The notes: generated by a model from the letters alone, not told the origin. DNA of 64,000 bases from a bacterium (GCA_043821115.1 JBDRDD010000007.1:6276-70275); one strand, 5' to 3'. Counted from the stretch's first letter, positions 29,302-34,612 are shown. Numbers and translations: made by a program.

Positions 29302-29865
29302 ATGGAAATCCTAAGGAAACGCATCCCTATAATGAATCTCAAAAATTCCCATGGTTTAACATTGATAGAGATAGTATTAGCGATTACTGTTTTAGTAATG
29401 GCGGTTATCCCTTTAATGAAAATGCTTGGGGATAGCCTGCGCGGCAGTCAAACCTTCTCCGATATATCAATAGCTACTCAATTAGCACAGGAATTAATGG
29501 AAGAGATAAAATCTAAAAGATGGGATGAACTTTCATCACTTGATGGCAGTCCGGCTCCCAATGGTTCCTGGCCTTTTGGTCCTGATGCAGGAGAGGGGAC
29601 ACCTGCTGCGTATGATGATGTTGATGATTATAATACAGCTCCTCTTGCTTATGATGTTGTGGATGGTAAATTCACAAGAACAGTAGAAGTGATCTATGTT
29701 AATGTACCTCATGCTTCAGATCCGGCTACAATAACCCCGACTTTGCCGCTGGGGACAACAAGTGCCTACAAACGGATAACAATCACGATTGACTGGACAG
29801 GAAAAAATCCTAATGCGGAACCACTCTTTATTAGTACAATACGTGCAAATTACAGGGGATATTAA
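29302..29865 (+). CDS. Pseudopilin/type IV pilin-like protein (prepilin N-terminal cleavage/methylation domain)
   Basis: KNSHG|LTLIEIVLAITVLV with Glu at +5 after the putative cleavage Gly; start could be the internal Met at 29332. Confidence 0.8.
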   Translation: MEILRKRIPIMNLKNSHGLTLIEIVLAITVLVMAVIPLMKMLGDSLRGSQTFSDISIATQLAQELMEEIKSKRWDELSSLDGSPAPNGSWPFGPDAGEGTPAAYDDVDDYNTAPLAYDVVDGKFTRTVEVIYVNVPHASDPATITPTLPLGTTSAYKRITITIDWTGKNPNAEPLFISTIRANYRGY

Positions 29866-30920
29866 TGCGTAAAAAGAGACATGCAAAAGGTGTAACTTTA
29901 ATTGAGATTATAGTAGTTGCCGCAATTATAGGTATCGCCTTTTATGGGATCATTAGGCTTCTTAAATATAGTTACGATGCATGGTTTCTGGGTTCTTCCA
30001 GGTTAACCCTTCAACAGGAAGCACGCCAAGCTATGTCCATAATAGGACAGGATCTAAAAAACTCAAAACGTTCAAGTATAGGGAACCTGACATTTAATGT
30101 CGGTTTTGAAAATCCTCCTGGAAATGCCGGGGAACTTGATTCCTGGAACAGCACAGAATTTACAGGAGGGAAAGTTTTCAGGGTATTTGGCAGTACTGAG
30201 ACAAGAAGCGGATTTGGCGCATTGAAGCTTGTTGATGACACCTCAATCGCGAACGGGTATAGAAGTTATAAACCAATGGCCGATGGAGGGATGTACTCGA
30301 CTTTTACTTATACCCAGGATTATGTACTTTCTGGATGGATAATGAATTCAGTAGTAAGTATATCTTCAAGCACAGCGGAAGTAAGGGTTGTTACTCCAGG
30401 TAATGCTGATTTGGGAGCGCCTTCCGGACCTGTGTTTATAAGTACACCAACATACCAGAATGCCAATCCCTACTGGGTTTTTATCAGTACAACTTTTCCA
30501 CAAACGCAAAATATCAACTTTGCTCTAAGATTTACCAATTTCTCAGAAGGAACAGAAGTGTTTTTTGATGACATATGTGTCGCGCCGTCCAGTTTTGGAT
30601 ATGTTGGGGGGGCTGTTAATTATCAACGTCCTCCTAATACACCTATGGCTATGGGTTATGATTCTTATAGGATTTTGCTTAATCCTGCAGGAGGGGGAGT
30701 AGATTCTACGCATATCTTACGACAAAAGGAAGACAGTCCGGGCGTCTTTAATAGCTTTGGATTAAATCCTCTGACCGCGGATGTAGAGAGTTTTATGATT
30801 ATAAACAACAATCAGACATCGTTTGACATTTTATTAAATCTTGTTGATCCTGACGCCGGGGGAGTAGCAGGGACACAACGCTATGATATGAGAACAACAG
30901 TATTTCCTAATGTGCCGTAA
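29865..30920 (+). CDS. Large pseudopilin-like protein (prepilin-type N-terminal domain)
   Basis: MRKKRHAKG|VTLIEIIVVAAIIGIA with Glu at +5; 351 aa. Confidence 0.8.
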   Translation: MRKKRHAKGVTLIEIIVVAAIIGIAFYGIIRLLKYSYDAWFLGSSRLTLQQEARQAMSIIGQDLKNSKRSSIGNLTFNVGFENPPGNAGELDSWNSTEFTGGKVFRVFGSTETRSGFGALKLVDDTSIANGYRSYKPMADGGMYSTFTYTQDYVLSGWIMNSVVSISSSTAEVRVVTPGNADLGAPSGPVFISTPTYQNANPYWVFISTTFPQTQNINFALRFTNFSEGTEVFFDDICVAPSSFGYVGGAVNYQRPPNTPMAMGYDSYRILLNPAGGGVDSTHILRQKEDSPGVFNSFGLNPLTADVESFMIINNNQTSFDILLNLVDPDAGGVAGTQRYDMRTTVFPNVP

Positions 30921-30932
30921 CTAGGAGAGTAT

Positions 30933-33613: not shown

Positions 33614-33622
33614 GGTGAAAAC

Positions 33623-34612
33623 ATGAATAAAACTTTACTCAGTATCATTATTTCTTTCCTCATTTTGCCGCCTTTAATGATCAATCCAGCGTTTGCAGGC
33701 AGCACGGGTACCTCAGGCGCTATAGTGCTTCGGTATCCTGTGGGAGCAAGAGCCGTTGGCATGGGAGAAGCTTTTACAGCCATCTCAGACGATGTTTCTG
33801 CTGTATACTGGAATCCCGCGGGATTAAGCTTTTTAACTCAAAATGAATTACTAATGTTTTATCTTGAAGGGTTATCTGATACAGGGTATGGTTTTGTTGG
33901 TTTTGCCTCTCCTACGAAATTTGGAACCTTAGCTGTTAGTATAACGTCTCTTCAGGCCGGGAAAGCCAAAATCTACAGTTTAACTGAGCCGACAAGGGAA
34001 GTTATTGCACAAAGTGACTACGTGGGCATTATATCCTATGCTAACCGGATTGTTGAGCCTCTTTCTATAGGACTAAATGTGAAGGTAATGCAGAGCGAGC
34101 TTGCGGAACAGGAAAAGGCAAGCGCGTATGCATTTGATGTTGGTCTTTTGTATGAAACGCCCCTTAAGAACCTCTTCTTTGGTGCGGTCATGCAGAACTC
34201 TGGATCAAAGATAAAATATATCTCTGAAGAGGATCCCTTGCCAGTGACCAGCAGGGTAGGGTTGGCATATACGATTTTCATAAAAGGAAAGATCGAGAAG
34301 GAAGAAAGTATTTTTGAGCAATACTTTCCAAATTTTGAAGAAAAACCGCAGAGTCCTTCTGTTATACATGCCATTACTATAGCGGCGGACGCAGAAAAGC
34401 CAAATGACGAAGATTCCAGATCTAATGTAGGGATAGAGTACTGGTTTGGGGATATATTTGCCCTAAGAAGCGGGTATAAAATTGGAAGGGATGCAGAAGG
34501 CCTTACTGCAGGAATAGGTTTTGCATATAGCGGTGTTGAATTTGATTATGCCTATGCTCCGGTGAAGGATTTGGACAGCAATCACCGCGTCTCTTTACTG
34601 GTAAGGTTTTAG
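33623..34612 (+). CDS. FadL/PorV-like outer-membrane beta-barrel
   Basis: Signal peptide; VGARAVGMGEAFTAISDDVSAVYWNPAGL; C-terminal strand HRVSLLVRF. Confidence 0.82.
   Translation: MNKTLLSIIISFLILPPLMINPAFAGSTGTSGAIVLRYPVGARAVGMGEAFTAISDDVSAVYWNPAGLSFLTQNELLMFYLEGLSDTGYGFVGFASPTKFGTLAVSITSLQAGKAKIYSLTEPTREVIAQSDYVGIISYANRIVEPLSIGLNVKVMQSELAEQEKASAYAFDVGLLYETPLKNLFFGAVMQNSGSKIKYISEEDPLPVTSRVGLAYTIFIKGKIEKEESIFEQYFPNFEEKPQSPSVIHAITIAADAEKPNDEDSRSNVGIEYWFGDIFALRSGYKIGRDAEGLTAGIGFAYSGVEFDYAYAPVKDLDSNHRVSLLVRF

Follow-up and report, generated by a model that had tools for sequence, protein, structure and literature searches.

Within a 64,000-nucleotide (nt) stretch of bacterial DNA from a metagenome-assembled genome (MAG; GCA_043821115.1, JBDRDD010000007.1:6276-70275; hereafter the window), positions 29302-34612 hold five consecutive plus-strand open reading frames (ORFs) of 187, 351, 103, 782 and 329 amino acids (aa). 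These encode three prepilin-type proteins (p1, p2 and p3), an NHL/FN3 protein (the NHL cargo) that ends in a type IX secretion system (T9SS) C-terminal domain (CTD) belonging to type A, and an outer-membrane barrel of the PorV/PorQ family (Table 1). A first-pass annotation had proposed this layout, with Glu at position +5 of the first two prepilins, the NHL/FN3 protein following within 20 nt and a FadL/PorV-like barrel after it, and all of this stood: the five ORFs were recovered at the same plus-strand coordinates, the N-termini can be read directly, no junction exceeds 20 nt, and both the CTD (TIGR04183, 32.9 bits against a cut-off of 23) and the barrel (NF033709, 201 against 90) pass their models. 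It was equally right that the 64-kb window encodes no secretion or pilus ATPase, platform protein, secretin or prepilin peptidase, although it had overlooked an SprA/Sov-like protein at 97-4524. We consider it reasonably probable that p1-p3 are an orphan type IV minor-pilin tip set inside which a cargo-barrel pair has been placed, i.e. two envelope systems that probably share one transcript.

The five genes are tightly packed, with a 1-nt overlap (TAATG) at the first junction, gaps of 12, 20 and 9 nt at the following ones, and a Shine-Dalgarno site at each. In a scan of 28600-35500, the two best sigma-70-like matches (both 11/12) fell before p1 and just after the barrel gene, and no plus-strand site above 9/12 was found inside the block; terminator-like sites on this strand were found neither at the gene junctions nor after the barrel gene, the single match lying within p2 (30410-30428). 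Given these junctions, the flanking promoter-like sites and the lack of a junction terminator, the five genes most likely form one transcript. The true start of p1 is probably ATG 29332, as indicated by the alignment of its homologues and by the promoter-like site ending at 29294, so that the boundary of 29302 in the first-pass annotation stands for the longest ORF and not for the probable gene start.

GC content at third codon positions (GC3) is 0.30-0.39 from the pilins through the large-protein gene further downstream (29302-39308), against 0.48-0.54 in housekeeping neighbours. The NHL and PorV genes (0.32-0.39) resemble the pilins and the large protein in this respect, whereas the other two cargo-barrel pairs of the window are at 0.46-0.51. 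This low-GC3 block, which sits between a tRNA-Glu gene and an rRNA operon, may represent either an old island or surface genes that are weakly expressed or evolve fast.

Table 1. Positions of the pilin and cargo-barrel genes, their downstream neighbours and associated signals in the window
Feature	Position	Strand	Evidence and remarks
p1, PilV/GspI-like minor pilin, 177 aa from ATG 29332 (longest ORF from 29302)	29332..29865	+	Leader MNLKNSHG/LTLIE, Glu5
p2, GspJ/PilW-fold minor pilin, 351 aa	29865..30920	+	MRKKRHAKG/VTLIE, Glu5; inserted CBM4/CBM16-like beta-sandwich
CBM4-like module within p2, residues ~74-240	30084..30584	+	Motifs GN..N.GFE.P...W ... FDD
p3, small Glu5-less pilin-like protein, 103 aa	30933..31244	+	...KKEKG/SAFIM; GspK/PilX-like by position and N-terminus
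NHL cargo: secreted NHL beta-propeller (10 repeats), fn3, T9SS type A CTD (residues ~700-782)	31265..33613	+	Pfam, NCBIfam
PorV/PorQ-family outer-membrane barrel, partner of the NHL cargo	33623..34612	+	NF033709, 201.3 bits (cut-off 90)
c-di-GMP-I-GGC riboswitch aptamer	34698..34782	+	Rfam RF03167, 65.1 bits (cut-off 59); downstream boundary of the block
Membrane-anchored TPR protein, 181 aa	34832..35377	+	Homologous to post-trio TPR genes of L089, L001, L008 and L090
Large secreted protein, 1302 aa: N-terminal GH113-like and PKD domains, conserved ~700-aa C-terminal domain, ~60-aa tail	35400..39308	+	Pfam
tRNA-Glu(CUC)	29160..29237	+	ARAGORN and Rfam; upstream boundary of the block
Sigma-70-like promoter candidate, TTGACA-18-TATATT	29265..29294	+	11/12, consensus match only
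Second sigma-70-like promoter candidate, TTGACA-16-TATACT	34626..34653	+	11/12, consensus match only
SprA/Sov-like translocon candidate, 1475 aa	97..4524	+	TIGR04189, E=2.8e-46, 157.5 bits (cut-off 200)
Cargo-barrel pair 1: PorV-family barrel with TPR extension (6933-8765), Kelch propeller with type A CTD (8762-10096)	6933..10096	+	No pilins
Cargo-barrel pair 3: Ig-domain protein with type A CTD (47395-49524), PorV-family barrel (49550-50506)	47395..50506	+	No pilins

The minor pilins and their conserved partners

The first pilin falls just short of the Pfam N_methyl model (PF07963; 18.8 bits, cut-off 21.2) and matches the NCBIfam models PilV (E=1e-6, 29.2 bits, cut-off 52.2) and GspI (E=1.5e-5, 25.4 bits, cut-off 44.35) in its N-terminal region only; it is 41% identical to L089_194, one of its homologues within type IV pilus (T4P) clusters. 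p2 passes both PF07963 (24.1 bits) and TIGR02532 (21.3 bits, cut-off 16.3). A word-indexed search with p2 returned no relatives besides p2 itself, and an exhaustive HMMER search returned ~20 full-length relatives with 25-37% identity, the alignment of which comprises the pilin helix, a block running from GN..N.GFE.P...W to YFDDVS, and a C-terminal sheet. Compared to sequences from the PDB, the profile of this family matched carbohydrate-binding module (CBM) CBM4-2 of laminarinase 16A (1gui, E=2.8e-8) along with CBM16 modules, and the insertion matches the CBM4/16/22 beta-sandwich in both sequence and fold. The pilin moiety has a long alpha-1 helix packed on a beta-sheet, as pilins do, its nearest folds being EpsJ and XcpW, two pseudopilins of the type II secretion system (T2SS). 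This inserted beta-sandwich explains the length of p2, which had rightly been singled out as very large for a pseudopilin. Judged by these matches, p2 is a GspJ/PilW-fold minor pilin with a grafted module of a sugar-binding type, in other words a modular pilin.

The third protein combines a prepilin leader and helix with Met at +5; GspK/PilX-type subunits likewise lack Glu5. Its N-terminus alone matches GspK (E=0.022, 14.3 bits, cut-off 130), it matches neither the N-terminal methylation models nor the Pfam model PilX_N, and its homologues adjoin p1/p2 in every locus carrying the trio; p1 and p3, too, form conserved families. None of the three proteins reaches an equivalog cut-off of GspI/PilV, GspJ/PilW or GspK/PilX (GspH scored 15.1 against 80), hence the designations PilV/GspI-, GspJ/PilW- and GspK/PilX-like used here instead of family membership. 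Profile searches of PDB sequences recovered only the pilin N-terminus for p1 and were uninformative for p3, and a six-frame motif scan of the window detected no prepilin N-termini beyond those of p1-p3. A four-gene pilin-like cassette of the Verrucomicrobia/Chthoniobacter type (TIGR02598/TIGR02599) was considered and rejected, the scores (14.0 bits against 51.4 and 14.4 against 256.5) coming from the N-terminal region only.

Downstream of the barrel gene, a cyclic di-GMP (c-di-GMP) riboswitch precedes genes for a membrane-anchored tetratricopeptide repeat (TPR) protein and a large secreted protein. A terminator-like hairpin with a U-run (~34764-34818; fold z=-3.3) overlaps the 3' side of the aptamer and looks like a conditional terminator, an arrangement that suggests a c-di-GMP ON switch. 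Aptamers occur at the orthologous positions of two relatives (L001 2827-2907, 69.2 bits; L008 8968-9115, RF01051, 36.1 bits against a cut-off of 35), and none was found in the T4P clusters L089, L090 and L092. GGDEF proteins are also encoded in the window, at 19152-20576, 24388-25878 and 58779-62021.

The TPR protein aligns with those of L089 (34% identity, E=7e-26) and L008 (30%, E=1e-17), among others; the TPR genes of Omnitrophota-type loci display no significant pairwise similarity to it and are linked to it via L089, L008 and L090 only. Residues 607-1302 of the large protein align with L089_1553 (E=1e-72), and homologues are also found in L090 (L090_1464 and L090_774) and L092. Neither Pfam nor NCBIfam yielded a match to the PilY1/PilC C-terminal beta-propeller, a profile of the 700-aa C-terminal region found nothing among PDB sequences, and a single-sequence structure model of this domain was unusable (predicted local distance difference test score, pLDDT, of 29).

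A conserved tail is common to all large proteins adjoining the trio. We built a hidden Markov model (HMM) from the last 60 residues of six large-protein homologues (consensus G.TK.VV.Y(I/V)N(A/T)EG...GN.I..E), which scored 20-24 bits on the large proteins encoded immediately upstream of the trio in L003-L007. It also matched the p3 orthologue of L002 (1-426, GCA_017973895.1), in which a ~45-aa C-terminal extension matches the tail (window 39126-39305) with 41 bits and E ~1e-11, against 6 bits for the best of 200 shuffles; the NHL cargo and all other pilins gave no match. This extension looks like a natural fusion of the tail, or plug, to a pilin, and its occurrence in L002, the one cassette that lacks TPR and large-protein genes, would be expected if the tail normally docks on p3. 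A parallel may be drawn with the plug of PilC/PilY1, which binds PilK and which, when fused to PilK, bypasses PilC (bioRxiv 10.64898/2026.09.18.752573). Term searches of two Omnitrophota preprints returned neither the shared tail nor the p3 fusion.

The gene contexts of these homologues place the module within pilus machinery. L089 encodes T2SSE ATPases, PilC, a major pilin, a prepilin peptidase, p1, p3, p2, an fn3/CBM lipoprotein, a TPR protein and a 1553-aa protein, and L090 encodes PilC, a major pilin, a prepilin peptidase, duplicated p1/p3/p2 sets, a TPR protein, a 1464-aa protein, PilM, PilN and PilO, followed by a 148-aa ORF with no family match and a secretin. In both, trio homologues adjoin Peptidase_A24, T2SSE and T2SSF genes. 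L092 holds a lipoprotein, a TPR protein, a 1546-aa protein, PilM, PilN, PilO and a weak PilP-like ORF, bringing the type IVa-pilus-type clusters with module genes to three, two of which (L089 and L090) include the pilin trio; a metagenome scan with the C-terminal domain of the large protein returned two loci only. All-against-all BLAST related p1, p2, p3 and the TPR protein of the window to those of L089 and L090; for the large protein, its ~700-aa C-terminal region has homologues in L089, L090 and L092. Because these homologues lie in T4P clusters, the conserved unit is p1, p2, p3, the TPR protein and the large protein, as part of type IVa-pilus-type machinery. The first of the two readings offered by the first-pass annotation, an orphan minor-pilin set, is thereby supported from other metagenomic contigs.

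The duplicated sets of L090 (7065-11044) comprise p1 proteins of 214 and 196 aa, two 103-aa p3 proteins and p2 proteins of 330 and 347 aa, and the locus further encodes a 646-aa pilin whose N-terminal half is p2-like, as well as large proteins of 774 and 1464 aa that both bear the tail. These duplications suggest interchangeable tip modules on one machine.

More distant loci retain the same association. In L003-L007, from MAGs labelled Omnitrophica or Elusimicrobiota, p1, p2, p3 and two TPR genes lie downstream of a gene for a giant PLD/Ig/LTD protein, and a few kb beyond them a PilT-like ATPase and a PilX_N protein are encoded. L094 encodes several pilins including a p2 relative, two TPR proteins and a PLD/LTD giant of at least 2689 aa. 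Closer to the window, L008, which belongs to the same assembly as L002, runs elongation factor G, p1, p2, p3, c-di-GMP-I riboswitch, TPR and large protein, with no cargo or barrel; the first 332 aa of this large protein, the part available, are not similar to that of the window.

The NHL cargo, its barrel and other cargo-barrel pairs

The NHL cargo begins with a hydrophobic segment ending in ...FLADA, a predicted Sec signal peptide. Its CTD, which scores below the cut-off of Pfam Por_Secre_tail (22.3 bits against 27), is similar to the C-terminus of PorZ (E=2e-9) and can be aligned with those of the two other CTD proteins of the window. The barrel lies below both equivalog cut-offs, with a slightly higher score for PorQ (91 against 220) than for PorV (86 against 250), and its orthologues at 67, 59 and 50% identity all keep the cargo upstream. 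At residues ~222-250, the barrel (33623-34612) carries a charged loop insertion of up to ~30 aa (IKGKIEKEESIFEQYFPNFEEKPQSPSV...) that is common to the three closest orthologues and is not seen in other PorV-family proteins, including the other two barrels of the window. This loop could confer specificity for the NHL cargo.

In all, the 64 kb hold three pairs of a type A CTD protein and a PorV-family barrel, with pilins upstream of the middle pair only. In pair 1 the barrel comes first, overlaps the Kelch cargo by 4 nt and is fused to a ~300-aa C-terminal TPR region; C-terminal extensions also occur in several PorV-like homologues from databases (P0008, TPR-like region; P0026, LysM). The SprA-like protein aligns through residues 252-440 with positions 586-792 of TIGR04189, a model of 2319 positions, and gave no match to Pfam SprA and no phmmer match to solved SprA/Sov chains in the PDB. 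Much shorter than characterised SprA, it could be a reduced translocon of the SprA type that serves all three CTD cargos. The T9SS core components PorK/L/M/N and PorU were not seen in the 64-kb window, which leaves the SprA-like protein, itself below cut-off, standing alone.

As a control, we scanned GTDB with a narrow PorV alignment, which gave 80 distant loci (1.4 Mb, at most 34% identity) that included neither the genome of the window nor its close relatives and belonged to WOR-3, Poribacteria, Zixibacteria, KSB1, Ignavibacteria, Marinimicrobia, Gemmatimonadota, Latescibacterota and Bacteroidota. None of the 80 contained a genuine prepilin gene, five scan matches all being evident false positives (e.g. 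antiporter GTSLPE motifs), and the same scan recovered Glu5 pilins in positive controls.

Among the relatives, a contig from JGI 3300075153 has the full five-gene order of the window, its genes for a histidine kinase, a response regulator-GGDEF protein, HisG, GltX, DUF1844 and QueF being followed by genes of 210, 322, 101 and 783 aa and a PorV-like gene (59% identity). L001 (PorV, 67-68% identity) runs cargo, PorV, riboswitch, TPR and GH113-like protein, and L002 (PorV, 50-51%) runs p3, cargo and PorV directly into a 16S rRNA gene that is ~94% identical to that of the window over the 5' 860 nt. PorV and CTD HMMs run across all trio loci matched in the window, L001 and L002 only. Where the window has the NHL cargo and barrel, in the slot that separates the minor pilins from the TPR gene, L089 (6971-8176) and L092 (238-1509) have a lipoprotein with fn3 and CBM30/CBM11-like domains and lipoboxes ...LGC/...NGC.

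Interpretation of the combined locus

Taken together, these observations are most readily accommodated by two systems lying side by side. p1-p3 would form the minor-pilin tip, or priming, set of a type IVa pilus (T4aP)-like filament whose motor, platform protein, prepilin peptidase, major pilin and secretin would be encoded outside the window. From the conservation of the tail, the L002 fusion and the parallel with the PilC plug, we infer that the large protein is the partner that this set displays: by analogy with PilVWX-PilY1, it would be carried at the filament tip, its C-terminal tail docking on p3, with additional targeting to glycans provided by the CBM of p2. Expression of the TPR and large-protein genes would depend on c-di-GMP-gated read-through from the block or on separate initiation. 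The NHL cargo would be exported via Sec and then probably through the SprA-like protein (97-4524), and would be held at the surface by binding of its CTD to the barrel, as PorZ is by PorQ. Finally, the cargo-barrel pair would have been placed behind the minor pilins and ahead of the unit of riboswitch, TPR and large-protein genes. Insertion is the most parsimonious history because outgroup loci run minor pilins, TPR and large protein, at times with an unrelated lipoprotein in between, and a CTD cargo and barrel occupy this slot in the lineage of the window only.

The trio shares several features with the minor-pilin/PilY1 complexes of T4aP (FimU-PilVWX-PilY1 of Pseudomonas aeruginosa, PilHIJK-PilC of Neisseria and the minor-pilin/PilY1 sets of Myxococcus xanthus), namely co-encoded minor pilins of which one lacks Glu5, a large non-pilin protein following the pilins, with a variable N-terminal and a conserved C-terminal region, and, in relatives, a position within PilB/T-PilC-PilD-PilMNOPQ clusters. 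Much as the PilC plug binds PilK, the tail of the window family appears, from the L002 fusion, to dock on a K/X-type subunit. Yet the set counts three pilins instead of four or five, none of them at an equivalog cut-off, and no PilY1/PilC domain was detected in the large protein, which has GH113-like and PKD domains (CBM, PLD, Ig or LTD domains in relatives). An obligatory membrane-anchored TPR companion, a CBM4-like module on p2 and, in the lineage of the window, partner genes behind a c-di-GMP riboswitch further set it apart. Binding modules grafted on minor pilins are known from the glycan-binding tip complex of Streptococcus sanguinis, with a vWA module on PilB and a lectin module on PilC (PMC9934059). 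p2 likewise carries a module on a pilin moiety, although here a CBM4/CBM16-type beta-sandwich, predicted to bind sugar, separates the N-terminal helix from the C-terminal sheet of a GspJ-fold pilin, and the system is of diderm type.

On the cargo side, anchoring of CTD proteins by a barrel is established for PorZ-PorQ and, with adjacent PorP-like barrels, for type B CTD proteins (PMC9143113), and in characterised T9SS the barrel serves as anchor or shuttle for its CTD partner (PMC9143113; PMC8545088 and PMC5562754). As in PorZ-PorQ, PorU-PorV and SprB-SprF, a protein with a beta-sandwich sorting domain adjoins a FadL-like barrel of the PorV/PorQ/PorP superfamily. Given these precedents and the resemblance of the CTD to that of PorZ, the most economical assumption is that the NHL propeller has its own barrel as anchor or shuttle. 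Unlike known T9SS pairs, however, those of the window join a type A-like CTD to a PorV/PorQ-family barrel, one barrel per cargo and three times in 64 kb; the barrels score below the PorV/PorQ equivalogs, the SprA-like protein is short and below cut-off, and the organism is a MAG.

The second reading offered by the first-pass annotation was that the pseudopilins act together with the cargo-barrel pair, either as a pseudopilus tip that pushes, hands over or presents the NHL propeller held by the PorV-like barrel, or with the NHL protein as a pilus-associated adhesin in an accessory slot. The tight polycistronic layout without internal promoter or terminator is in keeping with such a functional hybrid, as are the order kept in relatives with 50-67% identical barrels, the retention of p3, cargo and barrel in L002 without the TPR and large partners, the low GC3 common to pilins and pair, and the presence of another secreted protein, the fn3 and CBM lipoprotein, in the same slot of L089 and L092. 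Against these stands the distribution of the parts: at least seven further loci carry the trio family, beside a TPR gene and a large or giant tail-bearing protein, but neither a CTD protein nor a PorV-like gene, and pairs without pilins occur twice more in the window and in 80/80 loci elsewhere. Co-occurrence of pseudopilins and CTD cargo, which the first-pass annotation had put forward as a check in related genomes, is thus confined to the lineage of the window, the conserved partners of the trio being the downstream TPR protein and the tail-bearing large protein. Moreover, the NHL cargo lacks the tail that marks the partners of the trio, the SprA-like candidate would provide an independent, pilus-free export route, and the p3-fused tail accounts for the missing large protein of L002 without invoking the NHL cargo. 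We therefore regard a functional hybrid as very unlikely. The NHL protein was also considered as a PilY1 analogue and rejected: although it does contain a propeller, it lacks the tail and is not conserved beyond this lineage. A scheme joining the two ideas, in which the tail is a general docking signal that, by completing p3, loads large or giant hydrolase or adhesin proteins (those of Omnitrophota type among them) on filament tips and the tip complex is in addition recruited to the CTD cargo and barrel, would make L002-like cassettes true hybrids presenting or releasing the NHL propeller; we give it little chance of being right.

Another possibility is that the trio represents the GspI-J-K pseudopilus tip of a T2SS-like machine that secretes the adjacent large or giant hydrolase-like proteins, the tail then being a secretion or recognition signal and the cargo-barrel pair still a separate entity. 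The gene order is indeed that of GspI-GspJ-GspK, with Glu5 in the first two subunits and not in the third, the pilin moiety of p2 is closest in fold to EpsJ and XcpW, p1 matches GspI and p3 weakly matches the N-terminus of GspK. The partners are also enzyme-like (GH113-like, PLD and 3-keto-disaccharide-hydrolase-like domains), and a preprint on Omnitrophota reports giant genes beside gspD/E/F-like loci (10.1101/2023.11.21.568195). However, p3 is 103 aa long and has no alpha-domain, unlike GspK (~320 aa), and no GspH, GspG, GspC, GspL or GspM gene lies nearby in any locus. The module clusters instead carry PilM/N/O with a weak PilP, an AMIN-domain secretin and short PilT-size ATPases, i.e. the PilMNOPQ-type machinery of type IVa pili and not GspC/L/M. 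A tail fused to p3 is easier to reconcile with a structural docking element than with a transient secretion signal, and carrying a lectin-like module is a typical trait of adhesive modular pilins (PMC9934059). On balance, a T2SS-like pseudopilus appears unlikely.

Several points nevertheless weigh against the preferred reading of a minor-pilin tip set with a separate pair inside it. Trio, cargo and barrel occur together in every informative relative of the lineage (in full in JGI 3300075153, and as p3-cargo-barrel in L002), a persistence that could reflect function rather than inertia, and the low GC3 shared by the NHL/PorV genes and the pilins argues that the pair is not a recent arrival. No pilus machinery of this genome was seen in the 64 kb examined, and the assignment of p3 as a K/X-type subunit depends on a weak match to the N-terminus of GspK. 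The large protein shows no sequence similarity to PilY1/PilC, no match to a solved structure and no usable model. In addition, the 80 control loci come mostly from phyla of the Fibrobacteres-Chlorobi-Bacteroidetes (FCB) group and not from the lineage of the window itself, and promoters and terminators were assigned by consensus matches only. The adjacency of pilins and pair is real, and they are likely co-transcribed; a shared mechanism finds no support in these data, and there may be a functional link such as co-regulated surface adhesion or something more direct.

Some elements of this picture were known already, including modular pilins, cargo-barrel pairs, and pseudopilin genes beside large or giant secreted proteins in Omnitrophota (10.1101/2023.11.21.568195). 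According to the latter work (West-Roberts et al. 2023, bioRxiv), these giant genes adjoin T2SS/T4P-like loci with small class III signal-peptide genes. L003-L007 and L094 are such neighbourhoods, combining large or giant adhesion- or hydrolase-type proteins with the same pilin trio family; the window differs from them in its 1302-aa partner and in the CTD cargo/PorV pair within the module, which is specific to its lineage. Our literature searches returned no account of a module that combines a CBM4-bearing pilin of GspJ fold with an obligatory TPR companion and a tail-sharing large protein other than PilY1, nor of a natural tail-pilin fusion, c-di-GMP riboswitch control of such a module, or a T9SS-type pair embedded within it.

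A hybrid of pseudopilus and T9SS-type sorting would, if true, be a new kind of secretion system, and that the evidence makes it unlikely is itself useful. What is left standing is a type IV filament tip module of uncultured bacteria that brings together a modular pilin of sugar-binding type, a small pilin lacking Glu5, a TPR protein and an enzyme-like secreted protein of large or giant size that is marked by the tail. If the tail is a docking plug, it would offer a concrete mechanism for deploying the giant proteins of Omnitrophota-like bacteria, and would extend the plug principle of PilC/PilY1 to proteins without PilY1 homology. The repeated pairs of one cargo and one PorV-like barrel, along with a short SprA-like protein in a MAG, bear on the reach of T9SS-like sorting beyond Bacteroidota.

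Surrounding genes

Across the whole window (1-64000), every credible gene lies on the plus strand and GC skew is positive in 31 of 32 2-kb bins, being slightly negative at 46-48 kb only, which indicates a strong replication-strand bias or a long leading-strand stretch. The rRNA operon that follows the low-GC3 block is complete (39680-45050), with the 16S rRNA gene at 39680-41275 and tRNA-Ile and tRNA-Ala in its spacer. CoaBC is usually a single gene. Here, a CoaC-like ORF (Flavoprotein, 46143-46694) and a CoaB-like ORF (DFP, from profile position 31; 46793-47335) are separate on the plus strand with a gap of ~100 nt, which could reflect a split gene, a frameshift or an assembly error.

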